Assembly (NCBI GenBank): GCA_018238825.1 | Contig: JABCSP010000002.1 | Span: 1 to 34,416 of the forward strand | DNA from: Candidatus Thorarchaeota archaeon | GTDB lineage: Archaea > Asgardarchaeota > Thorarchaeia > Thorarchaeales > Thorarchaeaceae | Direction: 5' to 3' | Length of the DNA stretch: 34,416 nucleotides | Shown here: piece by piece, positions 4,583-34,416 of the stretch | Layout: each line of letters begins with the position of its first letter | How positions within the stretch are numbered: the stretch's first letter is position 1 | The notes under the pieces: generated by a model | Seen by the model: the letters and a program-made list of their open reading frames with translations, nothing else | Database searches by the model: none | Told to the model about the DNA's origin: nothing | Position numbers and translations under genes: made by a program

Positions 4583-4946
4583 TTTCAGTTGAACCGAAAC
4601 AAAGTACATTGGAAGATTTCAAAACCTATTGTATGTTGTAGGTTACTAAATCATTCTATTTGGAGGTGAGGGGAACACTTTCCGAGGGCGACCGCGTTTT
4701 CTTGGCATTACATACTCCTGTAGGAAATATTAACTCTTATTTCTTGCGGGTACTTTGAACTCACTACTATTGACAATATCCGTTTCTCCTTTGAAATAGC
4801 GCCATTATTTTCATATCAAACATTCATCTAATTAATTAGCTTGGTAACTTTATATATCGTTCTACAGAGTTATTGTACGAGTACATAACCAATCTTGGGA
4901 ACAAGAAAGGGAGTGAACTCGACTGGCTCAAGAGATGGGTCAGAAC

Positions 4947-4954
4947 TTTATATA
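4947..4954 (+). promoter_or_regulatory. TATA box TTTATATA upstream of the likely real tnpB start (ATG 4965 or 4971)
   Basis: A consensus archaeal TATA sequence lies inside the first codons of the ORF-track model (start 4935). This argues for the downstream ATGs and a leaderless transcript. Confidence 0.4.
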
Positions 4955-4964
4955 TCGCAGGCGA

Positions 4965-6636
4965 ATGATAATGGCACAATCCAAGGGTGTTACAATCTCG
5001 GTAAAGGTCCCAATCAATTGGGCATCTATGACCGAGAGGACTAAGCAGAAGCTTAGTCAGACCGTTGGACGAGACTCAAGAATCATCCGTGCATATCTTG
5101 GTATTATTGAACAACATGAAGACGAGTTGTTAACAGGCAAGAACAAAGATAAAATTGATGACACCAATCTATCGAAATTGACGATGACCTCAAAAAAGGT
5201 CAAGTCGGGAGACGAACAAAGAACTAGTGTTCTGCATGACTTCAAGGTTCGTTTTCCACGAATCTCTCAAAACGAAATGACAGATTGTAGAAAGACCTCT
5301 GTTGCACATTATGAAAGCTATCTAAAACTAAAGAAAAATGGTAGAAAGGTTTCACGACCATCTTCCATTAGTTCCAGCAGGAGAATCCCACGTTGGACTT
5401 TTACAAGGATGTTTAGGATAGTTAAGAGTGAAACAACTGTATTAAACTGGTGGTTGGATATTAGAAACTCACTTGACTCTGTACAAGAGGGTCGACCAAT
5501 CCACGATCGGACTCTAATTCCCCTCAAAATGTCCCCCTTTCATCTTAACCAAATTGGTCGGGGTGAGGTAAAGGCATTACAATTATTCACTGATAAGGAG
5601 AAGAAATGGTGGGTAACATTTGCTGTCCGGCTTACCAACATTGAAGTTCAAGAGAATACTCTCCCAATCGCGATTCTTGGTATTGAGAAGGCTGCTTGTT
5701 CATCTCTTCTTACTCCTGAGAAGACAAGAGAGGTCCGATACTTCCTTCAGACAGATAAGGTAACGGTCATTAAGAAGTACGACAGGCTTGTTGCTGACCT
5801 CCAGAGAGAGATGAATACTCGGAGAAACAATGGACAATCATACAATAGGGTTGCTGAGAAACTTCGTCGATTACGTGCGAAACGAGAGTGTGTTGCTAAG
5901 GAGTATGATAGGGTTCTTGTCCGTCAAATTCTTGACTATGTTGAAGAACTATCCAAGAAATACACACTCTATGTTGCCATTGGTCGCCTGAAAAAATATC
6001 CGAATACGTGCAAGAAAAGGAAACTACCGGGGGCGAAGGTTTCGAGGAATGATACACTCCTGAGCCTTTGCTCGAATAACAAACAGTCTGAAGCATGGAC
6101 TTGCTCAGCAAGGTTGGAAGGTCGATGGAAAGGATGCTCGATTCCGAGCTGTTCCTGAAGGATGGACCTCCATCATGTGCTGGAAGTGTGGTGCTAAAGG
6201 GAAGAGACCTAGGCAGAACTATTTCCATTGTCCATCTTGTGGTCTCAAGCTGAATGCTGATAGAAATGGTAGTATCAATATTGCTGCACGTATGCTTACG
6301 CTCACAAAGTCACTGCACTCTGTGAGAGGACTAGGTTTGTGGACTAGGGCCTTGGATAAGACTCGACGTGCGCCACTGAAAGCCCGAAAGAAGAAATCTT
6401 CTTCCAAAGGGAAGTCCTTATTCTCTAAAAAGGAACTTACATCAGGTTCCGGAGAGTCCGCGGCTGTTCACTTTGTCCAATCGGACCTTGTCAGTTTCAG
6501 TGATGGAACTGGTAAGAGTGATAATGATCCTGCCGTGGTAAATACTGTGGAAACGCTCACTGTCGTTGGATGTGATGTGCCAACATCAGTACAGGAGAAA
6601 GAAGCCAAGACTTCAGGAGGGATTCCATCCCGATGA
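4965..6636 (+). pseudogene. tnpB: TnpB (IS605 OrfB-type RNA-guided nuclease family) disrupted by a +1 frameshift in an A6 run (5991-5996) and an in-frame TGA (6061-6063)
   Basis: Joining the frames gives ...LYVAIGRLK|NIRIRARKGNYRGRRFRGMIHS*AFARITNSLKHGLAQQGWKVDGKDARFRAVPEGWTSIMCWKCGAKGKRPRQNYFHCPSCGLKLNADRNGSINIA. This is the typical TnpB C-terminal half with a CxxC...CxxC zinc ribbon and RuvC-III ADRNGS. The TGA occupies the position where TnpBs normally have Trp (HSW.F). Confidence 0.8.
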
Positions 6637-10621: not shown

Positions 10622-11602
10622 ATGACAATTGCTATCCATGAGAGCGCATTGATTCGTCACTTTAACACTCGCAAAGAAGTCCTTCGAGCATGGGAAGAAA
10701 GGATAGGTTGCAGATTCTCACCCTTTCGTGGTTTTAAAATGCCAGATAGTCGTTTGTACATAGAAGATAGTGACTTCTTAGATTCCATTGTTGATTTGAT
10801 TATCACAAATGAAAGGCATGTCTTCATTCGTGGTCCTGTTGGATCAGGTAAGAGCACTCTAATGCTTTTGGCACTAAGAGACTTGCCTACGTTGGCTGAT
10901 CGAAGAGGAAACAAATTTGTCACTGGCTATGTAGGAATGACAGGTCTCTACGAGAAACAGATGGCTGCAGCTATTGCTGATTCTTTGAGAGTGAAGTACA
11001 AGAGGTCCTGGGAATCTACTCAGATTATAGATGCTGTGGCAAAAGAGAGTCTTCGAAGATATATAGAAGAAAAGAGTCGCACAGCACTCTTCATTGAAGA
11101 TGTTGCAGATAATCAAGAGGCCGCATTCCACAAACTTCGGTTTCTTGCAGACTTACCAACTGAAGAGATGGTTGATACTTTTGGTAAAGCACAGACTCTT
11201 GATGAACCAATTGTCACTTTGGTAATGTCTGGAACATTGATGTATTGGAATGCAATGCTATCCTTCTTACCACAAATCGCAGATCGTACAGAACCTCTTG
11301 ATGTCCCATCACTCAATAATGCAAAAGCTAAGGAATTTGTGGGGAGAAGAATAGCTTATGCTCAAGGACGAATTGATACCTTTGATCCAGATACATATGA
11401 TGTATACCCATTCAGTGATGATTCGATTAATGTAATTAATACTGCAGCAAGAGGAAATCCTCGTGATATTAGAATGCTAGCGCGAGGTTGTCAACAAGTG
11501 GCAGCAGAGAATTTTAGGAAGAATAGTGATCCCACCGTGGACAAAAAAATAGCATCGCTTGTTTGTCAAGCATATGCAACTATACTCGGGGAGGTTCAAT
11601 AA
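10622..11602 (+). CDS. AAA+ ATPase with Orc1/Cdc6- or ExeA/TniB-like motif order, no C-terminal winged helix
   Basis: Walker A GPVGSGKST, Walker B ALFIEDVAD, sensor-1-like VTLVMSGT and sensor-2-like ARGNPRDIRMLARG. The protein ends about 40 aa after sensor 2. Confidence 0.7.
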   Translation: MTIAIHESALIRHFNTRKEVLRAWEERIGCRFSPFRGFKMPDSRLYIEDSDFLDSIVDLIITNERHVFIRGPVGSGKSTLMLLALRDLPTLADRRGNKFVTGYVGMTGLYEKQMAAAIADSLRVKYKRSWESTQIIDAVAKESLRRYIEEKSRTALFIEDVADNQEAAFHKLRFLADLPTEEMVDTFGKAQTLDEPIVTLVMSGTLMYWNAMLSFLPQIADRTEPLDVPSLNNAKAKEFVGRRIAYAQGRIDTFDPDTYDVYPFSDDSINVINTAARGNPRDIRMLARGCQQVAAENFRKNSDPTVDKKIASLVCQAYATILGEVQ

Positions 11603-11603
11603 T

Positions 11604-11894
11604 ATGAGTCTACTTGGAAAATACAGACGAGATGAAGCAGACAAAGATGATGAAACAACAACGGTTCAACGAGAACCACATGAACCCACTAAGACTAGTG
11701 AACTCCATTCAGCAGTACCTAACAAAGAGCGAAAGAGTCCTATTGTTTCATTTTCCATTCCAACAGACCTTCGATCTTGTCTTCAGGCTATCAGGAAAAC
11801 TAAAGCAATCAACCTGAGTTTGTGGGTTGAGCATCAGCTCCGTGATGCAATTTCTAAAGAGTTCCCACAAATTGCTGAAGAATATTTAGAATAA
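11604..11894 (+). CDS. Ribbon-helix-helix (CopG/Arc/MetJ-like) DNA-binding protein with a charged, disordered N-terminal tail
   Basis: The C-terminal IVSFSIPTDLRSCLQAIRKTKAINLSLWVEHQLRDAISKEF fits a beta-strand plus two helices. The ATG lies 1 nt after the ATPase stop and is preceded by GGGGAGGT (11588-11595). I discarded the ORF-track N-terminal extension from 11559. Confidence 0.65.
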   Translation: MSLLGKYRRDEADKDDETTTVQREPHEPTKTSELHSAVPNKERKSPIVSFSIPTDLRSCLQAIRKTKAINLSLWVEHQLRDAISKEFPQIAEEYLE

Positions 11895-19325: not shown

Positions 19326-21218
19326 CTATTCAACCTCCCTCTTAATTGCTCCCTGTGGACAAACAGAAACACAAGTTCCGCAGAGATTGCATTGTGTCTC
19401 ATCGATTACAGCCTTCTCTGTTTCTGGATCCATATACATAGCTGGACAAGATAGTCGATTGAGACAACGCTTGCAAGCAGTACATGCTTCCTGATCAACG
19501 TAATATTTTGGTGGAGTTTCACCTGCACGTCGGCGGTCAGCTGCTGTCAACAGAGCACATGCTTCCTTAGAAACCAACACAGCAGGACTATGATTCTCCC
19601 TTGCCCATTTGACCATCTCTCTTACTTCACCAACAAGACCTGCAATTGAATCGAAAGGATTGATTGTCTTGACATATTTTACACCGAGACCCTTGCATAC
19701 TTCTTCGATATCTAGTGGTGTAACTTCTTTGCGCATTCCTGTAATTCCAGTTCCAGGATGAGGTTGATGACCTGTCATTGCTGTTGTTCGATTATCCAAT
19801 ATTACCAAACAAATTCGGTGTTGGTTATAGACTGCGTTGACTATACCTGGAAGTCCGGATGCGAAGAAAGTACCATCACCAATTGATGCAACAATGTCTT
19901 GATCAGTAACTTCTGCAAGTCCACAAGCTGTAGTTATTGAAGACCCCATATCAAATAGAATGTCTGCAGTTTCAAGAGGTGGTGCTATACTCAGAGTATA
20001 ACATCCAATATCGGATGGATAGATGGCTTTCCCACGTGTCGCTGCACGAATTGCATAGTATGATGCTCGATGTGGACAACCTGCGCATAATAGAGGTGGT
20101 CTGGGTGGTAAATCGAGAACTGCATCAGATCTCTTATCGATATCTTCCCAGTTAATAGGTGTATTACAATCTTGAACCTTGCACAAAGCTTCCATAACAA
20201 TTCGTGGGCTGTATTCACCAGCACGAGAGAAGAAACCCTGCTCTTTACCTAAGATTTCCACTGTTATTTTTTCCAGATGTGCTAGGCGCCTTGCGTGTGT
20301 TTCTAGATACGGTTCAAGCTCTTCAACTATCACGACTCTCTTGTGTTTTTTCAGAAGCTCAATTATTTTCTTCTCTGGGATTGGATGTGTGATTCCAAGT
20401 TTCAAAACTTCTGCTGAGAGATTCATTTCTAAAAGAGCTTCTTTCACATAATTGTATGCTACTCCGCTTGTTATGATTCCCAGGTCTCCTTCACCCTCGG
20501 TGAAGTTCAATGGACTAGTTTCCGAAACCTCACGGGCTTTCTCAATCTGTTCAAGTAACCATTGGTGTTGGACTCTTGCTACGGATGGTATTGGAACAAA
20601 TCTGAAAGGATCTTTCTCAAACACTACCTTATCAGGAAGAGTTGGTATTGGTCCAAATTCAATAGGTGCTCTGGTATGATTAACTCGTGTTGTCGTTCTG
20701 AATAGAACTGGTAACTCGAATTGTTCTGAGAAGTCATATGCTTCAAGCAACATTGACTTGGCTTCTATAGGATCGCTAGGTTCCATCATAGGCATATTGC
20801 CCATCAGTGCGTAGTATCTACTGTCATTCTCATTTTGTGAGCTCCACATACTGGGATCATCTGCAACAACAATGACCATTCCTGCACGAACTCCAACATA
20901 TGCAAGAGAGAAGAACGGATCTGCAGCAACATTGAGACCCGGTCCTTTACAGACCATCATTGATCGAACACCGGCGACTGCTGCAGCACCAGCAACTTCG
21001 AGTGAAACCTTTTCATTTGTACTGAATTCAAAGTAAAAATTTGGAATTTTTGGAGCCATGAATGTAAGATTATTCCCGATTTCACTACTGGGTGTGCCAG
21101 GATAGAGTGCAACTAACCTGACTCCAGCCTCAACTACTCCCCGAGCAATAGCTTCGTTTGCAAGCAAGAGTACTTTCTTTCCTGGAGTGTCTTCAAGTAA
21201 TTCTAGAGGTTTTGCCAA
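19326..21218 (-). CDS. iorA: Indolepyruvate:ferredoxin oxidoreductase alpha subunit (TPP-binding, C-terminal 2x[4Fe-4S])
   Basis: TPP motif GDGTFF...N and a C-terminal CTACKRC...CP / CNLCGTCVSVCP. Length is 630 aa. TTG start with GGAGG upstream. Confidence 0.9.
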   Translation of the reverse strand: MAKPLELLEDTPGKKVLLLANEAIARGVVEAGVRLVALYPGTPSSEIGNNLTFMAPKIPNFYFEFSTNEKVSLEVAGAAAVAGVRSMMVCKGPGLNVAADPFFSLAYVGVRAGMVIVVADDPSMWSSQNENDSRYYALMGNMPMMEPSDPIEAKSMLLEAYDFSEQFELPVLFRTTTRVNHTRAPIEFGPIPTLPDKVVFEKDPFRFVPIPSVARVQHQWLLEQIEKAREVSETSPLNFTEGEGDLGIITSGVAYNYVKEALLEMNLSAEVLKLGITHPIPEKKIIELLKKHKRVVIVEELEPYLETHARRLAHLEKITVEILGKEQGFFSRAGEYSPRIVMEALCKVQDCNTPINWEDIDKRSDAVLDLPPRPPLLCAGCPHRASYYAIRAATRGKAIYPSDIGCYTLSIAPPLETADILFDMGSSITTACGLAEVTDQDIVASIGDGTFFASGLPGIVNAVYNQHRICLVILDNRTTAMTGHQPHPGTGITGMRKEVTPLDIEEVCKGLGVKYVKTINPFDSIAGLVGEVREMVKWARENHSPAVLVSKEACALLTAADRRRAGETPPKYYVDQEACTACKRCLNRLSCPAMYMDPETEKAVIDETQCNLCGTCVSVCPQGAIKREVE

Positions 21219-21311
21219 TCACAGATCCTCCATGTTCTAGCGTATGTCGACGAGCATCATTTAGTTGTGTAATAGTCTTGTGGTAATGGAAATGAGTGAT
21301 AGTGATATTTC

Positions 21312-21323
21312 GAACACGTGTTC
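21312..21323. promoter_or_regulatory. Palindromic box GAACACGTGTTC (copy 1; extended 15-mer GAACACGTGTTCCAA)
   Basis: Perfect 12-bp palindrome, one of four copies that share the +strand CAA extension. Confidence 0.6.
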
Positions 21324-21383
21324 CAAACTTTTGCTCACAATGATCTCAAGTATTAGTTGTATTACATTTCTACTTCGTTATTA

Positions 21384-21395
21384 GAACACGTGTTC
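21384..21395. promoter_or_regulatory. Palindromic box GAACACGTGTTC (copy 2), 13 nt left of the left ORB-like box
   Basis: Read directly from the sequence. Confidence 0.6.
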
Positions 21396-21408
21396 CAATA
21401 CCCATCAG

Positions 21409-21575
21409 ACCCCTTTGTTTCCACTAGAGAATATCAAACATTTATCTATTAAATTCGCAAACGGTAAGTATAAATAGCTGTTTTAGCAGCTCTTATTTAT
21501 CTCCATTTTTATTATACATTATTGATCGCTCGAAATCACTACATTTTTCCTTTTTTGCAGTGGAAATGAAGGGGT
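21409..21575. other. Candidate replication-origin core: inverted ORB-like boxes (21409-21427 reverse, 21557-21575 forward) flanking a 129-bp A/T-rich spacer
   Basis: The reverse complement of the left box is CTAGTGGAAACAAAGGGGT. The right box is GCAGTGGAAATGAAGGGGT. The spacer has 34 G/C in 129 nt by my count. Confidence 0.5.
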
Positions 21576-21631
21576 GTTATCCAGATATTGCCAGAAACTT
21601 ATTGATATTCATGTTGGGATAATAGTAACTA

Positions 21632-21643
21632 GAACACGTGTTC
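21632..21643. promoter_or_regulatory. Palindromic box GAACACGTGTTC (copy 3), 56 nt right of the right ORB-like box
   Basis: Read directly from the sequence. Confidence 0.6.
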
Positions 21644-21664
21644 CAAATATCAATGGAATAGACT

Positions 21665-21955
21665 TTACAAAATCTCTTGAACAATCTCATACACTCTAAG
21701 ACTAAGAATATCTTTGTAGATTGAAAATAGACTTTCAAACAACATTCGTGATTCTTCTGGTACTAGAATAGCTGAATCTGCAACAGCTTTGGATCCCACA
21801 CACTCATCTAAGAGACCTGGTTTTCTTTTCTCCTTGATACCTGATTTTGTTTTCCAGGTGTAAGTATACCCATAGAGCTCTTTGGTAAATGCCACGCGAC
21901 GTGCATTGGTACGTCTTGCTTCTTTACAATCATATAGGTAGAGATACGACGACAT
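21665..21955 (-). CDS. Small basic hypothetical protein (96 aa from ATG 21955; alternative starts at 21981 and 22015)
   Basis: MSSYLYLYDCKEARRTNARRVAFTKELYGY...SAILVPEESRMLFESLF. No family recognised with confidence. The variant palindrome lies just upstream of the gene or over its alternative ATG. Confidence 0.5.
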   Translation of the reverse strand: MSSYLYLYDCKEARRTNARRVAFTKELYGYTYTWKTKSGIKEKRKPGLLDECVGSKAVADSAILVPEESRMLFESLFSIYKDILSLRVYEIVQEIL

Positions 21956-21974
21956 TCTCCAGACACCAATCAAA

Positions 21975-21986
21975 GAACACATGTTC
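21975..21986. promoter_or_regulatory. Variant palindromic box GAACACATGTTC (copy 4, followed by CAA) in the 5' region of the small ORF
   Basis: One mismatch to the other three copies, in the same orientation. Confidence 0.5.
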
Positions 21987-22113
21987 CAAGATTTCAACTT
22001 GTGTAATACAATCAATACATCTGTGGCCTACAGGAAAGGTTAAAGCGTAGGTGTCTTGGCCTCGCTCTCAGCACACCATCACTCCTATTGGGGAATAATC
22101 GGAGGAAAAATAG

Positions 22114-23415
22114 TTGAATCGCATTGGTCTACGAAAGGAAGAAAAAGCGTTTGAAACGAGAATTGCACTCATACCTGAACATGTGAAATCACTATCCGAT
22201 AAACATGGCATTAAATTTGTGATTGAACCCAGCAATCAACGTGCATTCACAGAAGAAGAATTCGAAAGTGTTGGTGCTACAGCTAACCCTCTGAAGGGAA
22301 GTGGTGTCCCCGTAGTCCTCGGTATCAAAGAGATGCCCATAGATTTCTTTGAAAAAGATGTGGTCTATTTCTTTTTCAGTCATACAATCAAGGGTCAGAA
22401 GTACAATATGCCCATGCTTAGACACATAATGGCAACTGGATCTACATTAGTTGACTATGAACGAGTAGTAGATGACAAGGGGCGGCGCTTGATTTTCTTT
22501 GGTAATTGGGCCGGAATGGCTGGTATATCAGATACATTTCGTGTACTTGGAAACCGTTTAGAAGTTGAAGGTATTCAACCCAATCCATTCAATGGAATGC
22601 GGACAACACTTGAGCTCAAGGGACTTGAAGCTGTGAAAGAAGAATTCAAGATCCTTGGAAAACGAATCCAAGAGCAAGGAATTCCTGAAGAACTTGCACC
22701 ATTTGTTGTGGGTTTTGCAGGATATGGCAATGTATCTCGCGGAGCTCAAGAGCTCTTTGATTTACTACCCCATGAAGTAGTTGAACCAGAAAATCTTCAA
22801 GATCTGGAACCAAAACGTAACTTGTTGTACAAATGTGTCTTCAAAGAAGAAGATATGGTAGAACCTAAAGACCTGTCAAACAAGTTTGAACTACAGGACT
22901 ACTACAAAACAGGAAAGGCAGGTTACAACGGTGTGTTTCATAATTATGTTCAGTATCTTACAGTTATTATGAACTGTATTTACTGGACGAACAAATATCC
23001 TCGGCTAATATCAAAGGATTTCATTCGTGAACATTGGAAAGAAGAATCCCGTAAACTTCGTGCAATAGGTGACATCTCTTGTGATGTGGGTGGTGCTATT
23101 GAGTTCACACTCGATTGTACAACTCCTGCTGATCCTGCATTTGTCTATCTCATCAACGAAGATCGAGCCGAACTTGGTGTAAAAGGCAATGGTCCAGTAA
23201 TCATGGCTGTCGATAATCTACCATGTGAACTTCCACGCGAAGCATCTGCTTCATTTGGAGAAACCTTACTCGATTTCATACCTGCACTTGCCAAGGCAGA
23301 TTTCAAAGCGTCTTTCGAAGAACTGGACTTACCACGGGAAATCAAAGATGCTGTCATTGTATATCGAGGCGAACTAACAAAGAATTACGAATATCTCAAT
23401 CAATACCTGAAATAG
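22114..23415 (+). CDS. Lysine-ketoglutarate reductase-like enzyme (saccharopine dehydrogenase, L-lysine-forming; homolog of the AASS N-terminal LKR domain)
   Basis: Blocks match my memory of human AASS in the same order: FFSHTIKGQKYNMPML, GNVSRGAQELFDLLPHEVVEPENL, DISCDVGGAIEF and VDNLPCELPREAS. TTG start with GGAGG upstream. Confidence 0.8.
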   Translation: MNRIGLRKEEKAFETRIALIPEHVKSLSDKHGIKFVIEPSNQRAFTEEEFESVGATANPLKGSGVPVVLGIKEMPIDFFEKDVVYFFFSHTIKGQKYNMPMLRHIMATGSTLVDYERVVDDKGRRLIFFGNWAGMAGISDTFRVLGNRLEVEGIQPNPFNGMRTTLELKGLEAVKEEFKILGKRIQEQGIPEELAPFVVGFAGYGNVSRGAQELFDLLPHEVVEPENLQDLEPKRNLLYKCVFKEEDMVEPKDLSNKFELQDYYKTGKAGYNGVFHNYVQYLTVIMNCIYWTNKYPRLISKDFIREHWKEESRKLRAIGDISCDVGGAIEFTLDCTTPADPAFVYLINEDRAELGVKGNGPVIMAVDNLPCELPREASASFGETLLDFIPALAKADFKASFEELDLPREIKDAVIVYRGELTKNYEYLNQYLK

Positions 23416-23428
23416 GGAGACATTAAAG

Positions 23429-24745
23429 ATGAAGAAAGTGCTATGTTTGGGCGCCGGGCTTGTAGCTCGTCCGTTTATCCATTATCTTAGTGAACATGGC
23501 TTCCATGTAGTGGTTGCCAGTAGGACCAAAAGTAAAGCTGAAAGTTTGATAGAAGGCTGTGCGAATGCTGAAGCTGTTGCTTTCAATATCGCTACAGACG
23601 ATAAGCTTCTTGAAGACTTGACCACCAAAGTTGATCTTGTTTGCTCTTTGCTTCCTTACACATTCCATGTCAAGGCTGCCAAAGTCGCAATCAAACACAA
23701 GAAGTCATTCTGCACCACATCATACATTTCAGATGAGATGAAAGCATTAGAAAATGAAGCAAAGAATGCAGGAATCATACTCTTGAATGAGTGTGGAGTT
23801 GATCCTGGCATTGATCATATGAGTGCCATGCAGATAATTGATCATGTGCATAACAACAATGGCAAAATTGTTAGTTTCACATCTTTCACAGGCGGTCTTC
23901 CTGCACCTGATGCGAATGATAACCCCTATGGATACAAACTCTCTTGGAGTCCTCGAGGAGTATTACTTGCTGGAAGAAATAATGCACACTTTCTACGTGA
24001 TGGAAAAGAGGTTAAAATCCTAGGAGCTGATTTGTTTCAGAACTGTGAACCCATGGAAGTTCCCGGAATGGGTACATTCGAGGGTTATCCGAACCGAGAT
24101 AGTATGTCCTACATCGACATCTACAACATAAAAGAAACTAAAACAATGCTCAGAGGAACCTTCAGGAATACCGGATGGTGTGAAACTCTCGATAAAATTG
24201 CAGATTTAGGTCTACTCGATATAGAAGAACGGTCTCTAAGTGGTATGACTTATGCTGATGTAATGAGAGAATTGACATCAGCTGGAAAAGGTGATCTCAA
24301 AGAGGCGGTTGCAAAATTCTGTAAAATTGGTACGGACAGCATGGTTATTTCGCGGTTTGAGTGGCTTGGATTATTTGAAGAAAGAGAGATAGATTCCAAA
24401 GTAAACACACGACTTGATGCACTATGTACTCTCTTTGAGGAGAAAATGAACTATGCACCTGGAGAGCGTGATATGATTGTCATGCACCACGAGTTCATTG
24501 CTGAATATCCCGATAAGAAACAGAAGATAACATCAACAATGGTTGATTATGGCATTCCCAATGGAGATAGTTCCATGTCAAGAACAGTTGCACTTCCTGT
24601 TGCCATTGCTAGCAGGATGATACTCGAAGGTCGAATCAATCTCACCGGTGTTCATCGTCCTATCATTCCTGAAATCTATGAGCCGATTTTAGAAGAACTT
24701 GCTGCACTAAATATTTCCCTTGAAGAACGCACTTTCGACTTGTAA
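23429..24745 (+). CDS. Saccharopine dehydrogenase (L-glutamate-forming; homolog of the AASS C-terminal SDH domain / LYS9)
   Basis: Rossmann N-terminus KKVLCLGAGLVARP, then LLPYTFH, GVDPGIDHM, GGLPAP, YKLSWSPRGVL, EGYPNRDS and LRGTFR. Confidence 0.85.
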   Translation: MKKVLCLGAGLVARPFIHYLSEHGFHVVVASRTKSKAESLIEGCANAEAVAFNIATDDKLLEDLTTKVDLVCSLLPYTFHVKAAKVAIKHKKSFCTTSYISDEMKALENEAKNAGIILLNECGVDPGIDHMSAMQIIDHVHNNNGKIVSFTSFTGGLPAPDANDNPYGYKLSWSPRGVLLAGRNNAHFLRDGKEVKILGADLFQNCEPMEVPGMGTFEGYPNRDSMSYIDIYNIKETKTMLRGTFRNTGWCETLDKIADLGLLDIEERSLSGMTYADVMRELTSAGKGDLKEAVAKFCKIGTDSMVISRFEWLGLFEEREIDSKVNTRLDALCTLFEEKMNYAPGERDMIVMHHEFIAEYPDKKQKITSTMVDYGIPNGDSSMSRTVALPVAIASRMILEGRINLTGVHRPIIPEIYEPILEELAALNISLEERTFDL

Positions 24746-24787
24746 TACCATTAATATTGGAAAATTTGTATGCAGAAGAGTATCCAG

Positions 24788-25426
24788 CTAATCCCTGACT
24801 TGCATCTGGATAGCTGCTAAGAGCTCTTCTGCTCTTTCTGTTTCTCTCAAAACTTCTTTAATCTCTGTTTTGAGACGATATGTATACCCTGATCTATTTC
24901 CATAACGTTCAAGGTGTCCTTTACTATGGTTCCACATTCGTGCAAGATAGGTAGAAGCTGTACTCTTTGGAAGATTTTCACTGAATGAATCTTCATAAAT
25001 TTCTGCAACATCAAGAGAAGAGAATTTCCCATGCTTGAAGGATGCGTATATGATCACTTGCATCTTTTCGAAGTTACTCATGGACTCTAATCGGGTTTCA
25101 TCAAAGCCTGTTTCTGAAATTTCATCAACAATTTCTTCAAAGATGCAGCCTGTACTTGTTTCAAGGAATACCTTGAACTTGGCAAACATTTCTTCTATAC
25201 TGCCGCCCTTGACTTGAAAACTAGACTCTTCTCCCATCGTTGCATCTGATACAAGAATCTTGAAATCAAAAGGCGCTTCTGTCAATGATAGGATCTTTTT
25301 GAATCTATCAAGTGCTTCAATAGGGCTCACATACTTGCACTGGAAAATCTCACGAAGCCCTGGAGCTGAACTATATGTGAATTCATAGACATAATTTGTT
25401 CGTTCTCCATCGTTCACATTTTTCAC
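24788..25426 (-). CDS. Hypothetical protein with a C-terminal winged-helix-like domain
   Basis: 212 aa. The C-terminal LPKSTASTYLARMWNHSKGHLERYGNRSGYTYRLK looks like a recognition helix plus a wing. The N-terminal domain is unknown and has no Walker motifs. Confidence 0.55.
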   Translation of the reverse strand: MKNVNDGERTNYVYEFTYSSAPGLREIFQCKYVSPIEALDRFKKILSLTEAPFDFKILVSDATMGEESSFQVKGGSIEEMFAKFKVFLETSTGCIFEEIVDEISETGFDETRLESMSNFEKMQVIIYASFKHGKFSSLDVAEIYEDSFSENLPKSTASTYLARMWNHSKGHLERYGNRSGYTYRLKTEIKEVLRETERAEELLAAIQMQVRD

Positions 25427-25544
25427 CTATCACTAACTATCTTATTCACATCAAGATAGTATTGCCATCCAAATAAGTGTGAGTATGTGAATTGAATATA
25501 CGTAGATAAGAGCTACATAGGACGTCTGCATAGATATAGAACAC

Positions 25545-25563
25545 GTCCCCCTCGTTTTTAGTG
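25545..25563 (-). other. Degenerate ORB-like box (reverse complement CACTAAAAACGAGGGGGAC), inverted relative to the box at 25715
   Basis: 13 of 18 positions match the forward box, including CACT, AAAC and the G-string. GAACACGT (25539-25546) abuts it. Confidence 0.35.
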
Positions 25564-25714
25564 TGCTCACGTCCTGTATAACCTTGTAACGGATAAAAAA
25601 GCATTATGAGGCCTTTATTTACAAAAATAAGGTACTTCTCCAGCCTGTTCACTATTCACTGTTTTATGTAGTGTGTGAATGAGGTAGTAAGCATTTCATA
25701 TGTCCGCTTACTTA

Positions 25715-25738
25715 GTTCCACTGGAAACGGAGGGGTGT
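25715..25738 (+). other. Near-consensus Orc1/Cdc6 origin recognition box GTTCCACTGGAAACGGAGGGGTGT
   Basis: A TTCCA-C-TGGAA dyad is followed by ACGGA and a GGGG string. From memory this is almost identical to the ORB elements described for crenarchaeal and euryarchaeal origins. Confidence 0.6.
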
Positions 25739-25887
25739 GTCTATTCACAAGTATAAGAAGATATATCGAAGCCGATTCTTCTTCAAGAAGCAAGCAAAAG
25801 GCTGTTTTTCCCAGAGTATTCACAATTATGGCGCCATTCACACTAAAACTATGTGAATTTGTGTTTATGAGAAACATGCTTGTGAGT

Positions 25888-26868
25888 TTATATTGGGACT
25901 AAGTAATCAGATGGATTCTCTCCCAGAACTAATTGTTGATAGTTTTCACCTGTTTTACTATCAATTACATTCTCAAATCTACCCCTAGCTCTTACAGACA
26001 TACCACTTGAAACTTGCTCTGTGAATCGCCCTCTATAACTGACAAGTTGTTTGAGCTTTGGAAGATCTAATGATTCCACTTGATATGTACATGGAGTAAA
26101 TATTGAGTTTCGATCTTTAATTACCGAACATTGAACTTCCCTAGTTTTCAAGTTCTCAGTCATGATTTGTCCAAAAATCTCTCTATCATCTTGAGGACGT
26201 TTTACTAATCTAATGAAGAATTGATGTGATTCAAAAACACCTTGCAAGATTTTCGTACTTTCAATCCTATGAAGGAGTTCGTAATGCTCGGTTAAATTAC
26301 CCCATCTAAATAAGACATGAGCATCCAGAAGTTCTCCATCGTAACGCTCTAACCTTGGAATCTTGTCAAATTTCTTTCTTAATCTATTGTAAAATTTCCT
26401 ACATGTGGATTCACCATATACAACTAGGTCAATATCTGATGTTTCTGTTGCGACACCTACAAGTTGGGATCCGGTAACACCTATTTCCGTTCTGTTTATT
26501 CCAGTATTATCAAGTAACAATTCAACTAGATTAGATGTTGCTACAGAAAGTGCCCTCTTATCATTTCGAATCTGGTCCATATGTTCAATGGGATTAAGCA
26601 CTTCTACTATCTTATTTCGTGGAACTGCTTGTAAAACCCTACCATGAGTTTTACTGAACCACAAATATTCTAAGAACCCATTACTGAGATATTCCTCTCG
26701 CTCTCGAAGATTGTAAATCTTCCTAAAACTTGAATCTAAATTTGGTACATACCTTACATAAGCAATAATCCGATCATGGGGATGTACCACTCCTTTTACT
26801 TCAAATATCAGATTATCCGAGGTTTTGATGAAATATCCTTCTACAAGTTTATCTTCCACTCTTATCAC
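25888..26868 (-). CDS. Pol-beta-superfamily nucleotidyltransferase with a C-terminal OB-like domain
   Basis: NTase motif GVTGSQLVGVATETSDIDLVVYG (GS...DxD). The C-terminal region is beta-rich. Length is 326 aa. Confidence 0.65.
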   Translation of the reverse strand: MIRVEDKLVEGYFIKTSDNLIFEVKGVVHPHDRIIAYVRYVPNLDSSFRKIYNLREREEYLSNGFLEYLWFSKTHGRVLQAVPRNKIVEVLNPIEHMDQIRNDKRALSVATSNLVELLLDNTGINRTEIGVTGSQLVGVATETSDIDLVVYGESTCRKFYNRLRKKFDKIPRLERYDGELLDAHVLFRWGNLTEHYELLHRIESTKILQGVFESHQFFIRLVKRPQDDREIFGQIMTENLKTREVQCSVIKDRNSIFTPCTYQVESLDLPKLKQLVSYRGRFTEQVSSGMSVRARGRFENVIDSKTGENYQQLVLGENPSDYLVPI

Positions 26869-30789: not shown

Positions 30790-31596
30790 GTGTTTCAATT
30801 GGAGAATCTAGTGATTGTTAAATTAGGAGGTTCTGTGATCACTCACAAAGAATCGTCACCTCCCGCAGTTAACGAGAAACATCTTAGTCGTATCGTGAAA
30901 GAGCTCGCGGTTCATAATGGCAAGTTGATAATAGTTCTTGGTGGTGGTGCACATGGCCATCAAGCAGCTCATAAACATGGTTTTGGAAATCCTGATGCGT
31001 CTCCCAAACAACTACTTGCAGGAATTCCAGAAATTCGTCATAATATGTCTCTTCTTACATCAAAAGTAGAAAAGGAGTTGAATGTTCAGGGGATTCCCGG
31101 AGTAGTGATTTCCCCTTTCATGTTTGTAACACTACGCGATAATCTGATAGATCACTTCCCAACAAAGATAATCAAAGAAACATTGAACGCTGGCACCGCT
31201 GTGATTATTCATGGGGATGTATGTTTTGATGAAACAAAATCCGTATCTATTCTAAGTGGTGATACAATTGCAAAATATCTTGCAGAACAGCTTAGTCCTA
31301 AAGCTGTTTTCATTGGCACAAATGTAGATGGTGTTATGGATGATAACCCAACAGTGAATCCAAATGCAAACCATATTCCTCTCATCAACAATTCAAACAA
31401 AAATCAGATACTTTCACTAACAGGACCATCTTCCAGTACTGATGTAACTGGAGGAATGACTAAGAAAATCACCGAGCTTCTAAATCTCGCAAGTCAAAAC
31501 GTGGATATTGTAATCTTCAATTTACTTGTTACCGGTCGTTTAACCGCACTATTTGAAAATGATTCTGTAATATGTACTAGAATCCAATTTACCTAG
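30790..31596 (+). CDS. ipk: Isopentenyl phosphate kinase (amino-acid-kinase fold)
   Basis: VIVKLGGSVITHK, LGGGAHGH and the C-terminal TDVTGGM motifs. About 268 aa. The start codon is uncertain (GTG/TTG options). Confidence 0.8.
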   Translation: MFQLENLVIVKLGGSVITHKESSPPAVNEKHLSRIVKELAVHNGKLIIVLGGGAHGHQAAHKHGFGNPDASPKQLLAGIPEIRHNMSLLTSKVEKELNVQGIPGVVISPFMFVTLRDNLIDHFPTKIIKETLNAGTAVIIHGDVCFDETKSVSILSGDTIAKYLAEQLSPKAVFIGTNVDGVMDDNPTVNPNANHIPLINNSNKNQILSLTGPSSSTDVTGGMTKKITELLNLASQNVDIVIFNLLVTGRLTALFENDSVICTRIQFT

Positions 31597-34416
31597 GTCA
31601 CAAGAGCAGAAACATTATCATCCATCGTTTTAATTATCAGATTTCTAGGAGTAACTACACTATCTTCAAGATATTCTGAAGCTGTGAGAATACATACAAC
31701 CTTTGATGATTTACATGTCCTGCAAGCTACATCACTATGTAAATTCAATAAAGTACTCAGCTGCTGCTGATTCGGAAAAATCACATACGAAGTATTGTTT
31801 GCACAGAGATCATAATATCCATGATTACGAGAAACCTTTGAATGATGCTTCTTAAGCTCAATCTCTATAATTTGCGTTGCTGCCTCTTTTAATCTTTTTA
31901 ATATTGATGAGTTAACTATCCACAGACCTTGCTCCATTTCAATGACTTTACTTTCAGCATTAGATCGTAAAGCAATCAATACTTCATCTGCTAAAAGCTC
32001 AGTCAAAGCTCTTCTTCCCTCATCAATAGTTAGAGGAGCTGATCTTCCTTTATGAGATTGGAGCGCAGTAGTTTCAATGAAATCAAGAAGCACTTCCCAC
32101 TTTATTTGACCATTTGATAAATCTACAAAATCTTGAATTAGCCCAAACCATAATCGTATCTGGATGGCTCTGCTTGTTGCAGGACCTATTTCATGCATTG
32201 CACCAATAAGACCCATATCATCATCAACTTCAGCAGCACTCTCATCATGACTATATCTCTGATTCAGATTCTCAATCATTGAATCCAATGAGCTTGGGAA
32301 TGCAGAAACAACACTTACTGCATCAAATTCTTCAAATTTATCTAATAGTTCTCTGAGTTTAGCAGCTGCAACACTTCCCCTGACAACAACAAATAATTCA
32401 CTAATCCCATTTCTGAGCATTTCCATATAATGCCGAATTTTAGTCATGGTAGTTTCCATTGATGAAGCTCTCAAATGCTGAGGTAGAATAACAATAGCTT
32501 TTTCTTCGATAATCATATCGGGCCAATCTGATTGCTTCTTTTTTGTAGTTTTATCCTGTTCTATACCTAATTTATTGGAAATGTATTCTACAATGACCTT
32601 TCGAATGGCTTCTAATCCATTATCAGGAAGTGTAAAGACAAAGCCACCGGGAACCAACGATAGGGCCTCACGTTCAATAGTACCCAACGTGACTAAATCT
32701 CTTATGACTTCTGAAATATCATCTTCCATTACAGTTGGATCAAGTGAAGTCAATAACTCCCGAATCTCTTGTTCTGTTGACATTTCTGCTGAAGCCAAAA
32801 AAGCAACAACGTGATTTCCAAAACGTCCGACTCTATCAAAAACGACAGTCTGTGCCTCTGTTTCAGGAATTTGATTTTCTTTTGGTTGATTTCCCACATC
32901 TTCAATGGAAATTGTATCCTGCCCCAAAACTGGTTCCATCTCAAGAAGCGTTTCATCCTCTAATTCATGCTTTGTTTCTTTTTTATCCAGAATAATTTTG
33001 TCAACAAACGGTTTCGTCGTAATTTCAAAAGTTTCAGAATTAGGAATAGAAACTAAGGCTCGACCACGCTTCATATTCCGTAAGTAAGTTTCTTGTTCTT
33101 CATTTAGAGATAGGAACTTACCTCCAGTTTGATTGTCATAAGGCAGCCGAAATACAATTTTTGTTGCAGTATTTGCAAGAATATTTGATGAGATATTAGG
33201 TCGTGTTGAAACTACAATGACTCCTTGACCTGTAGCACGTTGTAGCAAAACCATTGATTCGCCAGTAGTGACATCAGCAGAGGAGTGTTTGGAATAACTT
33301 TCAGGTACTAAGTTATTTGCTTCTTCAAGAACTACAATATGATGTAAACCTGGAACAATACCCCTTTTCATAGCACCTTCGAAAATTCGTTTAGCAATGA
33401 GATTGTAAAGTATCCGTGCTGAATCCATCCCCCCAATTCTTGCAACATAGCTCAAATCGAGAATAATCCGTTTTTGTAAGAGGCTTGAAATATCGATTGC
33501 TTCGGATCCTCCTCGAAGGATTTCACCAAGTGGTTCTTGAAATAATATCTGAAGACGATTGAGAAGAGCATCCCTAGTCATATGCCCAATACGGTCATTT
33601 GAAGAAATCTCTGTTATCATCTTAGATAATGACTGAACTGAGTTATTCTCTTCAAGAGAATCAGACAGTTTCATCACAGATTCCCTAAGTAATCGCTCCA
33701 TTGCTGGAGATAGTTGTGACGACTCTCCTCCTTTTTCTTTAAGTAATTCTTTCAACATGATGAATGTAGAATATGCAGAACCTTCAGTATTTCCAGTGTT
33801 GGAATCCATAAGATTAATCACAAATGAAGTATCGAGCCCAGGACGTAAGACAGTGATATCACTCGTATTTTGTCCTACTAGTCCTGTATATTCTGACCCT
33901 TTTATGTCAAAAATACACCAAGGTATGTCTGTTTTATCACTAAGTTGAGCAATAAGATGTTTCACTAAAGTTGTTTTTCCTGTACCTGTAGCACCTAAAA
34001 CCGCTACATGTTCTCTAAGCCATTCTACTCTCAATCCAGCACTTGAAAAAGGTCTACCCTCAAAAATAGTATCCCCAACAACAAGATCCTTGCCCAAAGA
34101 TTCATGTGAAGGAATCTGGAATATAGGTGCTGTTTCTGGTCCAATTACTGGTAGATTCCTGACCGGTGTATTGACAAAAGATACAAGTCTACTGACATGT
34201 ATTCTTTGTTTTTTAAGATGGGATTTTGAGAATAATCTAAGAGTAATTCTTCGTGTAATTTTTCTGGTATCTAATCTAAACGAATCATGACCCCCCCATA
34301 TTGAAAGAATCAGTCCTCTAACACCTTCTTCAGTTACAACAATGTCACTAAGCGGGTTTGGTTTTATAACGAAATATACTGTTGAGTCAAACCATCCAAT
34401 ATCATCCTGAATCTCC
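31593..34416 (-). CDS. HerA/FtsK-superfamily (DUF87-like) ATPase with a long C-terminal extension; 5' end beyond the window
   Basis: Walker A LGATGTGKTT, Walker B HHIVVLEEANN and RATGQGVIVVSTRP. The ORF-track model starts at 34097. I translated the same frame without a stop through 34098-34415 (106 more codons, EIQDDIGWFDSTVYFVIKPNPLSD...), so the gene continues past the edge. Confidence 0.8.
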   Translation of the reverse strand, partial: EIQDDIGWFDSTVYFVIKPNPLSDIVVTEEGVRGLILSIWGGHDSFRLDTRKITRRITLRLFSKSHLKKQRIHVSRLVSFVNTPVRNLPVIGPETAPIFQIPSHESLGKDLVVGDTIFEGRPFSSAGLRVEWLREHVAVLGATGTGKTTLVKHLIAQLSDKTDIPWCIFDIKGSEYTGLVGQNTSDITVLRPGLDTSFVINLMDSNTGNTEGSAYSTFIMLKELLKEKGGESSQLSPAMERLLRESVMKLSDSLEENNSVQSLSKMITEISSNDRIGHMTRDALLNRLQILFQEPLGEILRGGSEAIDISSLLQKRIILDLSYVARIGGMDSARILYNLIAKRIFEGAMKRGIVPGLHHIVVLEEANNLVPESYSKHSSADVTTGESMVLLQRATGQGVIVVSTRPNISSNILANTATKIVFRLPYDNQTGGKFLSLNEEQETYLRNMKRGRALVSIPNSETFEITTKPFVDKIILDKKETKHELEDETLLEMEPVLGQDTISIEDVGNQPKENQIPETEAQTVVFDRVGRFGNHVVAFLASAEMSTEQEIRELLTSLDPTVMEDDISEVIRDLVTLGTIEREALSLVPGGFVFTLPDNGLEAIRKVIVEYISNKLGIEQDKTTKKKQSDWPDMIIEEKAIVILPQHLRASSMETTMTKIRHYMEMLRNGISELFVVVRGSVAAAKLRELLDKFEEFDAVSVVSAFPSSLDSMIENLNQRYSHDESAAEVDDDMGLIGAMHEIGPATSRAIQIRLWFGLIQDFVDLSNGQIKWEVLLDFIETTALQSHKGRSAPLTIDEGRRALTELLADEVLIALRSNAESKVIEMEQGLWIVNSSILKRLKEAATQIIEIELKKHHSKVSRNHGYYDLCANNTSYVIFPNQQQLSTLLNLHSDVACRTCKSSKVVCILTASEYLEDSVVTPRNLIIKTMDDNVSALVT

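Follow-up and report, generated by a model that had tools for sequence, protein, structure and literature searches.

A conserved and invertible pair of origin recognition boxes upstream of iorA in Thorarchaeota, a candidate chromosomal replication origin unlinked from orc1/cdc6

The window analyzed here is a stretch of 34,416 nucleotides from Candidatus Thorarchaeota archaeon (GenBank assembly GCA_018238825.1, contig JABCSP010000002.1, positions 1 to 34,416), and it harbors a non-coding cassette of ~330 bp between two minus-strand genes, namely iorA (19326-21218, with TPP, POR and 4Fe-4S domains) and a Thorarchaeota-specific gene encoding a 96-aa protein (21665-21955). The gap between these genes (21219-21664, 446 bp) had been described in an initial annotation of the window as free of any credible open reading frame (ORF), and this was borne out, with only unconserved ORFs of 41-53 aa being detected in it. 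The cassette contains two inverted boxes of the origin recognition box (ORB) type, designated ORB-L and ORB-R, around an AT-rich spacer, and runs from one copy to another of an 18-bp palindrome (PAL, TTRGAACAYRTGTTCYAA, also written as TTAGAACACGTGTTCTAA). The palindrome, which brackets the box pair and also occurs upstream of the 96-aa gene, had been missed before, as had a third box (ORB3) located 4.1 kb from the pair.

The inverted boxes and their spacer

The inverted boxes were originally given as ACCCCTTTGTTTCCACTAG (21409-21427) and GCAGTGGAAATGAAGGGGT (21557-21575), and both are present in the window. The pattern AGTGGAAANNAAGGGGT was matched exactly at 21409-21425 on the minus strand (ORB-L, AGTGGAAACAAAGGGGT) and at 21559-21575 on the plus strand (ORB-R, AGTGGAAATGAAGGGGT, with the extended form TTTGCAGTGGAAATGAAGGGGTGTTAT), and its sole other match in the 34 kb, at ≤3 mismatches, was at 25720-25736. 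The latter belongs to ORB3 (TTCCACTGGAAACGGAGGGGT, 25716-25736, plus strand), a box with a full dyad. The G-strings of ORB-L and ORB-R are both directed outward, away from the spacer. The spacer itself (21426-21558), a putative duplex unwinding and helicase-loading zone, is a low-stability duplex of 72-74% A+T, and its length in the window is 133 bp between the 17-mer boxes, or 129 bp between the 19-mers of the initial annotation. A recount of these 129 bp again gave 34 G/C, equal to 73.6% A+T, compared with 60.2% for the whole window, and only 0.19% of the 129-bp stretches in the window are as AT-rich. In a 100-bp scan of duplex stability along the window, the second least stable stretch begins at 21423.

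A weaker third copy of the box had also been proposed at 21285-21304. The letters are present, yet they do not form an ORB, because the element lies outside the invertible cassette and has no conserved G-string; they overlap a different conserved element upstream of iorA (21266-21290, minus strand TCCATTACCACAAGACTATTACA), which has the consensus TCCAnnACCACAAGACTGATACA in our first alignment of related loci (A2) and which stays in place whichever way the cassette is oriented. In addition, a 10-mer, TTGTGTAATA, was found both upstream of iorA (21265-21274) and at 21999-22008, where the 96-aa gene and an alanine dehydrogenase-like (AlaDH-like) gene diverge, and its sharing suggests a common regulatory element of the two promoter-proximal regions.

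The assignment of the boxes to the ORB type was upheld by published origin sequences of Aeropyrum and Thermococcus and by box cores located upstream of orc1/cdc6 genes. ORB-R shares CAGTGGAAATGAA, at 13 of 13 positions, with a primer sequence from the origin region of Thermococcus barophilus, and ORB3 is identical at 19 of 21 positions to the 22-mer TCTCCACAGGAAACGGAGGGGT, which we take to be the Aeropyrum pernix ORB4 duplex crystallized with ORC1. The same 22-mer has been used as a binding substrate (PMC5376975). The box is thus nearly the same in A. pernix and the G-string directly follows the GGAAA-N3-A segment in both, but A. pernix belongs to another phylum, and in Thorarchaeota ORB3 is a solitary box, with 4.1 kb separating it from the inverted pair.

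A metagenome scan with the ORB core mostly returned chance singletons among the matches listed, and three low-GC contigs (L059, L132 and L138; 28-37% GC) were informative. In each of them the core CCAGTGGAAATAAAGGGGT occurs in tandem copies (CTCCAGTGGAAATAAAGGGGT) directly upstream of a gene with Cdc6_C, Cdc6_lid and AAA_22 domains, so the same core marks orc1-linked origins in other archaea. The tandem boxes lie 61-62 bp apart (L059:893-970, L132:1281-1358 and L138:1395-1473), and judging from their sequences these loci look like classical orc1-linked origins of other archaea. Two further contigs (L116 and L117) carry several ORBs around AT-rich DNA in an origin-like manner. The core CCAGTGGAAAT(G/A)AA is shared by the Thorarchaeota boxes, the oriC of Pyrococcus and Thermococcus and the three metagenome contigs, and in the contigs it is followed by GGGGT, as in Thorarchaeota. 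However, the ORBs of Pyrococcus, Thermococcus and the three contigs reside in an intergenic region beside cdc6, whereas the Thorarchaeota cassette is located between the 96-aa gene and iorA. The two inverted boxes vary independently of each other, with pairing in 85.8% of the alignment cells and in 87.1% on average after shuffling, and lacking covariation in this way they behave as protein sites.

Conservation, bracketing palindromes and inversion of the cassette

The comparison was carried out on 58 species-representative Thorarchaeota loci, which were found via the 96-aa protein, amount to ~435 kb of related DNA and include one locus (L029) from the closed chromosome CP070658.1 (2.58 Mb), where the cassette falls at about 1.804-1.812 Mb; together with the window they make 59 loci. 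The inverted box pair was observed in 59/59 loci, ORB-L included, with a start-to-start spacing of 143-155 bp (mode 148-150) and a spacer of 126-138 bp, and the A+T content of the spacer exceeds the locus mean by 6-19 points in every one of them. The gene order saccharopine dehydrogenase <- AlaDH-like <- / 96-aa gene -> [cassette] -> iorA was found in each locus whose contig spans these genes. Setting aside a few weak two-mismatch matches within the module itself, a single ORB match outside the three conserved positions was obtained in the ~435 kb (L034:7431, 2 mismatches). The same three-box geometry was also recovered in a 175-kb Thorarchaeota contig (L110) that came from the metagenome scan. 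Many metagenomic contigs end in or near the cassette, at a distance of 28-340 nt from the 96-aa gene (L017, L057, L187, L188 and L194-L197). The assemblies may have broken at the repeated palindromes, or the AT-rich core may have been poorly covered; minority inversions are conceivable as well.

The interval had initially been taken for an origin or a relic of one. The second option is ruled out by the conservation of the ORBs and of their architecture across the phylum, which favors a working cis-element; the first is weighed below as an interpretation. Inverted terminal boxes around an AT-rich core might also be read as the remains of a mobile element, of the miniature inverted-repeat transposable element type, or as a captured plasmid or viral origin, for which there is a precedent, captured extrachromosomal origins being known in archaea. 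Such a history is hardly credible here, given a single fixed syntenic site in 58 species with no second copy in any locus, no viral contig with a composite of PAL and ORB, and no adjacent integrase or rep gene.

The PAL core GAACACGTGTTC is present exactly at 21312, 21384 and 21632 and with one mismatch at 21975, and no other copy of that quality was found in the window. PAL-a (TTCGAACACGTGTTCCAA, 21309-21326) is the outermost copy toward iorA and precedes the start of that gene by ~94 nt, PAL-b (TTAGAACACGTGTTCCAA, 21381-21398) is the inner palindrome, ~10-13 nt from ORB-L, and PAL-c (CTAGAACACGTGTTCCAA, 21629-21646) is the outer palindrome on the other side, 21 nt beyond the end of the 96-aa reading frame. 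The fourth copy, PAL-d (AAGAACACATGTTCCAAG, 21972-21989), precedes the ATG of the 96-aa gene by 20-31 nt, within the 158 bp from which this gene and the AlaDH-like gene diverge, and was found in 55/58 related loci. A PAL is located on both sides of the ORB pair in nearly every locus. The minimal arrangement, which is apparently the ancestral one from the sequences compared, consists of a PAL, ~12 nt, ORB...ORB, 20-55 nt and a second PAL. In some lineages, the window among them, a third PAL is set apart from the second by a double GTAWTAC motif (GTATTAGTTGTATTACA, 21350-21366, between PAL-a and PAL-b), which is confined to these three-PAL lineages and recurs beside PAL-d as an inverted repeat (22002-22018). 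No relevant report of the PAL sequence was found in the literature.

The related near-palindrome TGTAWTACA was ~3-fold enriched in the window, with 36 matches (≤1 mismatch) against 10.9 expected and a maximum of 21 in shuffled sequences. Examples are located at 1825, 8357, 10566, 13366, 13932, 15782, 16822, 17902, 20160, 21358 and 22002, several copies are intergenic or at gene boundaries, and the motif bears a loose likeness to the ucm motif of Sulfolobus (TTATACAAA). It may be a genome-wide binding site or an element of promoters or terminators.

The spacer motifs described in the next section were observed in opposite orientations among the genomes in the first alignment, and the cassette turned out to be inverted relative to the majority in 13/59 loci, the window included. 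On a neighbor-joining tree of iorA and the AlaDH-like protein, this amounts to at least five independent changes of orientation. The sister pair L037 and L039 illustrates one of them, as the flanks are collinear up to each PAL at 88-91% identity, while the ~235 bp between the PALs align only when reversed, at 81%, so that the breakpoints fall exactly at the PALs. In the three-PAL lineages, the inverted unit spans the outermost PALs. Within two species-level populations, represented by 10 and 6 independent contigs of 99.7-100% identity, one orientation each was detected. We interpret the inversions as rare recombination events between palindrome copies that are tolerated, suggesting that the function of the cassette does not depend on which way it faces iorA or the 96-aa gene; the junctions would stay unchanged by such a flip because a palindrome is its own inverted repeat. 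This independence fits an autonomous cis-element, unlike a promoter dedicated to a neighboring gene, and the palindrome-to-palindrome inversions would thus offer a natural demonstration that the cassette acts irrespective of orientation.

A promoter-like element between inverted repeats, occurring in both orientations among species with breakpoints at the PALs, calls to mind the fimS- and hin-type invertons of bacteria, which are likewise segments bounded by inverted repeats, found in both orientations and equipped with a promoter-like element. A recombinase would then flip the promoter and toggle between expression of iorAB and antisense transcription of the 96-aa gene. We consider this very unlikely. 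Unlike the bacterial invertons, the Thorarchaeota cassette has no recombinase gene beside it in the window and the same flanking genes in every locus, the 16 contigs of the two populations gave no within-population polymorphism, and only ~5 flips have occurred over a phylum-level divergence; the content of the segment is moreover an ORB pair. From its distribution among the loci, the cassette behaves like a neutral rearrangement between palindromes and not like a regulated switch.

The palindromes, and possibly the GTAWTAC motifs, might alternatively be operators of a dimeric transcription factor that governs an amino-acid catabolism regulon, made up of iorAB, the operon of the AlaDH-like and saccharopine dehydrogenase genes and the 96-aa gene, and has no relation to replication. 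The positions of PAL-d in the divergent promoter region and of the palindrome 94 nt upstream of iorA in the window are in keeping with this, the more so as a PAL lies at about the same distance from iorA in L004, where the cassette has the opposite orientation. The logo of the palindrome, RGAA-CAYRTG-TTCY, also resembles the operator GGAA-N6-TTCC of the methanogen regulator NrpR in being an inverted repeat of 4+6+4 with TTCC as one arm in most PALs, and in lying near genes of nitrogen or amino-acid metabolism. However, the PAL has an invariant central CACGTG, which is no feature of NrpR operators, and its outer position is R and not G (G in 38% of half-sites). Furthermore, the PALs are closely tied to the ORBs in the minimal arrangement, and all 193 PAL matches (≤1 mismatch) in the 435 kb, a scan limited to these loci, were at the cassette zone. 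We hold a pure operator role to be less probable than not; it would concern the PALs alone and would be compatible with the ORB pair being an origin.

Motifs within the spacer and the third box

The module was realigned with all cassettes in a common orientation (A5). Its order begins with a PAL, ~10 nt, ORB-L (ACCCCnTTGTTTCCACTAGAAA), ~45 variable nt, the motif AAAGTATAAATA, GTTT..AGC and the motif TTATCTCCATTTT, and continues with an AT-rich stretch, CGC, a second (C)TCCATTTT, ORB-R (TTTCCAGTGGAAATGAAGGGGTGTTAT), 20-55 nt and a PAL. The first of the two near-invariant motifs resembles a TFB-recognition element followed by a TATA box (BRE/TATA-like; TAAGTATAAATA in the window, 21465-21476, plus strand); it has no other match in the window at ≤1 mismatch, and its offset from ORB-L is fixed at ~37-42 nt in all loci. 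The second motif (21497-21509, plus strand) follows at a fixed distance of ~30 nt, and a degenerate second copy of it (CTACATTTT) is located at 21539-21547. The stretches between the motifs are poorly conserved. The architecture of inverted ORBs around an AT-rich core, as first proposed, stands, but the spacer is not a featureless unwinding element, since it holds these two near-invariant motifs.

The second motif starts about where a transcript from the BRE/TATA-like motif would begin, and the latter is similar in style to A/T-rich boxes upstream of the two tRNA genes of the window. The cassette might accordingly be pictured as a small transcription unit, with AAAGTATAAATA as the promoter, a short non-coding RNA beginning near TTATCTCCATTTT and the inverted boxes as structural boundaries of the RNA or DNA, and its independence of orientation would suit a self-contained gene. 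Several results speak against this, and we regard it as quite improbable. No Rfam match was obtained for positions 21150-26000, which also include the surroundings of ORB3, at gathering thresholds or even at E ≤ 1. The covariation score of a stem formed by the two boxes was 0.090 against 0.105 in shuffled alignments, no covariation was seen elsewhere, and the consensus energy given by RNAalifold was −4.1 kcal/mol over 245 columns. A T5 run would be reached ~8 nt after the start of the putative transcript, and runs of this kind are termination sites of archaeal RNA polymerase. Conservation between the motifs is also poor, and the boxes are canonical ORBs.

A hairpin at 21476-21491, which was flagged by a sigma-70 promoter scan, was set aside, as it is unconserved and such a scan does not suit archaea. 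Both tRNA genes lie on the minus strand (1404-1522, 119 nt, and 1581-1687, 107 nt); they were found by Rfam and missed by ARAGORN, and both presumably contain introns, in keeping with an archaeal source of the DNA.

Where the flank of a locus extends far enough, ORB3 has kept its relative position. The non-coding region around it (25427-25887, 461 bp) lies upstream of a minus-strand gene for a hypothetical protein of 212 aa (24788-25426), which is directly downstream of the region, and shows block-by-block conservation in an alignment of its own (A4). It contains ~8 position-conserved TGTGAAT/ATTCACA sites, mostly inverted pairs ~14 nt apart, and eight of the 19 TGTGAAT copies in the window fall within 25376-25858. 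A palindrome, (A)ATGGCGCCATT, also given as AATGGCGCCATT, is located at 25827-25838, and a further conserved block reads ATTCACATACTCACACTTATTTGG. No RNA covariation was detected in this region, the pairs predicted by RNAalifold being confined to the invariant repeats and the covariation term being −0.21.

The 212-aa protein has 305 homologs, of which none is annotated and one is labeled Sifarchaeia. Among the matches listed and aligned it is 79-95% identical across Thorarchaeota, which exceeds the neighboring enzymes. No Pfam, NCBIfam or PDB match was obtained, profile searches against PDB and Pfam included, and its AlphaFold2 (AF2) model was of low confidence (predicted local distance difference test, pLDDT, 60), and its Foldseek matches were meaningless. 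By eye, the C-terminus resembles a winged helix-turn-helix in its sequence.

Interpretation as an origin unlinked from its initiator gene, and neighboring genes

Taken together, the box pair, its spacer and their conservation make it probable that the cassette is a functional chromosomal origin of the archaeal oriC1 type, which depends on Orc1/Cdc6 and ORBs, and that it is unlinked from orc1/cdc6. The closest parallel is the oriC1 of Sulfolobus and Saccharolobus, in which inverted ORBs of the Orc1-1 type also flank an AT-rich region of comparable size. In S. islandicus, the ORB3-DUE-ORB2 unit, where inverted ORBs flank the duplex unwinding element (DUE), measures 130 bp including the ORBs. There too a conserved motif is found inside the unwinding region, the essential ucm motif (ATTATACAAAC), which is bound by a small accessory protein of 111 aa, UBP. 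However, ucm differs from the spacer motifs AAAGTATAAATA and TTATCTCCATTTT of Thorarchaeota, and its consensus was not found in the Thorarchaeota spacer. A GTAATACAA-type motif beside the PALs was tried as a counterpart of ucm and rejected, the likeness being too loose (~7 of 8-10 positions). Sulfolobus oriC1 further has orc1-1 immediately adjacent, in contrast to the Thorarchaeota window, which has none within 13-21 kb, and it lacks bracketing palindromes and reported inversions, whereas the Thorarchaeota cassette has both in addition to a distant third ORB.

The binding and firing steps that we infer for such an origin would proceed as follows. Orc1/Cdc6 encoded elsewhere would bind ORB-L and ORB-R as polar monomers, with the dyad halves (TTCCA-N-TGGAAA) pointing toward the spacer and the G-strings outward, and would load the MCM helicase on the length-constrained spacer (~131 bp, ~70% A+T), where melting would begin. 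The motifs AAAGTATAAATA and TTATCTCCATTTT would serve as sites of accessory factors and not as passive unwinding sequence, and the candidate binders are TBP/TFB or a sequence-specific nucleoid protein, as with ucm and UBP in Sulfolobus oriC1. A dimeric factor on the PALs might delimit or insulate the cassette, and it would also sit at the promoter of the 96-aa gene and ~95 nt upstream of iorA. If its outer PALs recombined, the cassette would flip with its junctions intact, and an origin that works both ways would tolerate such flips. ORB3 might belong to this origin as a remote ORB, or it might be a regulatory site that depends on Orc1.

Several observations weigh against an origin at this site. 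Characterized archaeal origins as a rule adjoin an initiator gene, yet no orc1/cdc6 or whiP-like gene was found in the window, that is, within 21 kb on one side of the cassette and 13 kb on the other, and no initiator gene was found within 4 kb on either side in the 58 related loci. The absence of an adjacent orc1/cdc6, already pointed out in the initial annotation, was confirmed with tblastn and a hidden Markov model (HMM) built from three genuine Orc1 proteins, which returned only P-loop noise in a proteasomal ATPase gene across the window, the 58 loci and L110, and Pfam and NCBIfam scans of all substantial ORFs of the window gave no Cdc6 domains. The cumulative GC skew reaches its maximum at ~18.5-19 kb and not at the module, although this curve follows the gene strand and covers a 34-kb window only. 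The ORB search covered the window and the ~435 kb of related DNA, a span short of a whole Thorarchaeota genome, so ORB clusters may exist elsewhere, for instance next to orc1, and the cassette could then be a secondary or dormant origin. The operator-like geometry of the palindromes amid genes of amino-acid catabolism and the transcription unit that the promoter-like element and its fixed-distance partner could form, both considered above, count on the same side. As for the missing neighbor, adjacency of the initiator gene is typical of archaeal origins and no mechanistic requirement.

An AAA+ ORF at 10622-11602, with the overlapping 11559-11894, was examined as a divergent or split Orc1 and rejected, because it matched TIGR02928 through the P-loop only, at 16 bits against a cutoff of 181. 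The first ORF (plus strand) encodes a 326-aa P-loop ATPase with weak AAA_16, AAA_22 and NB-ARC matches, and the second (plus strand, 111 aa) overlaps it in another frame; from their sequences, the two may represent a STAND-like NTPase with a frameshift.

The missing initiator gene and the lack of a skew signal at the module would also be expected if Orc1/Cdc6 bound the boxes and replication started elsewhere, for instance beside an orc1 gene. The cassette would then be a dormant origin, an architectural site or a regulatory site acting on iorAB, the 96-aa gene or, via ORB3, the 212-aa gene. ORB3 agrees with this, being a single box that precedes a gene within promoter-like sequence, and both dormant origins and regulatory ORB clusters have been documented in haloarchaea and provide precedents. 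However, inverted ORBs, an AT-rich core and a constrained spacing make up the firing unit of characterized origins, and they have been kept throughout the phylum, while the free inversion relative to iorA and the 96-aa gene speaks against an orientation-dependent promoter role. We therefore judge a non-firing element, the main rival reading, to be unlikely in comparison with an active origin.

A bolder version of the active origin would make the cassette the principal origin of Thorarchaeota, with a lineage-specific dimeric factor, perhaps the 96-aa or the 212-aa protein, on the PALs and a TBP/TFB-type or ucm/UBP-like factor on the spacer motifs; as a whole, this is a doubtful proposition. If true, the origin and the initiator gene would have become separated in an Asgard lineage, which would also have recruited sequence-specific accessory factors and transcription machinery embedded in the origin, a move toward origins specified by several factors. 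No known prokaryotes are more closely related to eukaryotes than the Asgard archaea, whose replication proteins have already been analyzed in depth, and in the searchable literature, including a 2026 review, no description of origin cis-elements from Asgard archaea was found. The cassette thus offers a phylum-wide candidate origin with defined parts, namely two ORBs, a core with two motifs, the PALs, ORB3 and two conserved proteins. In addition, linkage-based tools for origin prediction would miss such loci if an oriC1-type origin is stably unlinked from orc1/cdc6.

The 96-aa gene is always beside the cassette. Its product has 168 homologs, all hypothetical, which share 63-98% identity among the matches listed; all of those that carry a name belong to Candidatus Thorarchaeota, which places the window in an Asgard archaeon. 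Searches of Pfam, NCBIfam and the PDB sequences gave no match for the protein, and a look-up of the exact sequence returned no record. The AF2 model (pLDDT 88.9) has a ferredoxin-like fold of the order beta-alpha-beta-beta...alpha-beta with a basic beta-hairpin. The best Foldseek superpositions were with Cas2, at a TM-score of ~0.5, a root mean square deviation of 3.4-3.8 Å and a weak E of ~0.08, and no structure of UBP was among the Foldseek matches. Its constant adjacency and the PAL at its promoter make the 96-aa protein a candidate accessory factor of the cassette. However, in L014 the 96-aa gene and the cassette are separated by an inserted gene for a 442-aa class-I methyltransferase (L014:4289-5790), with neither being disrupted and three PALs remaining intact.

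Elsewhere in the window, an 834-aa HerA/FtsK-like ATPase is encoded at 31593-34097 (minus strand), with the DNA-translocating ATPase CedD as its best NCBIfam match, far below the cutoff. On the plus strand, a 407-aa ORF without a family match (4935-6158) precedes one of 153 aa (6175-6636) that has a Cas12f1-like TNB domain, and from the arrangement of their sequences the two look like a split or degraded element of the TnpB/IS200-605 type.

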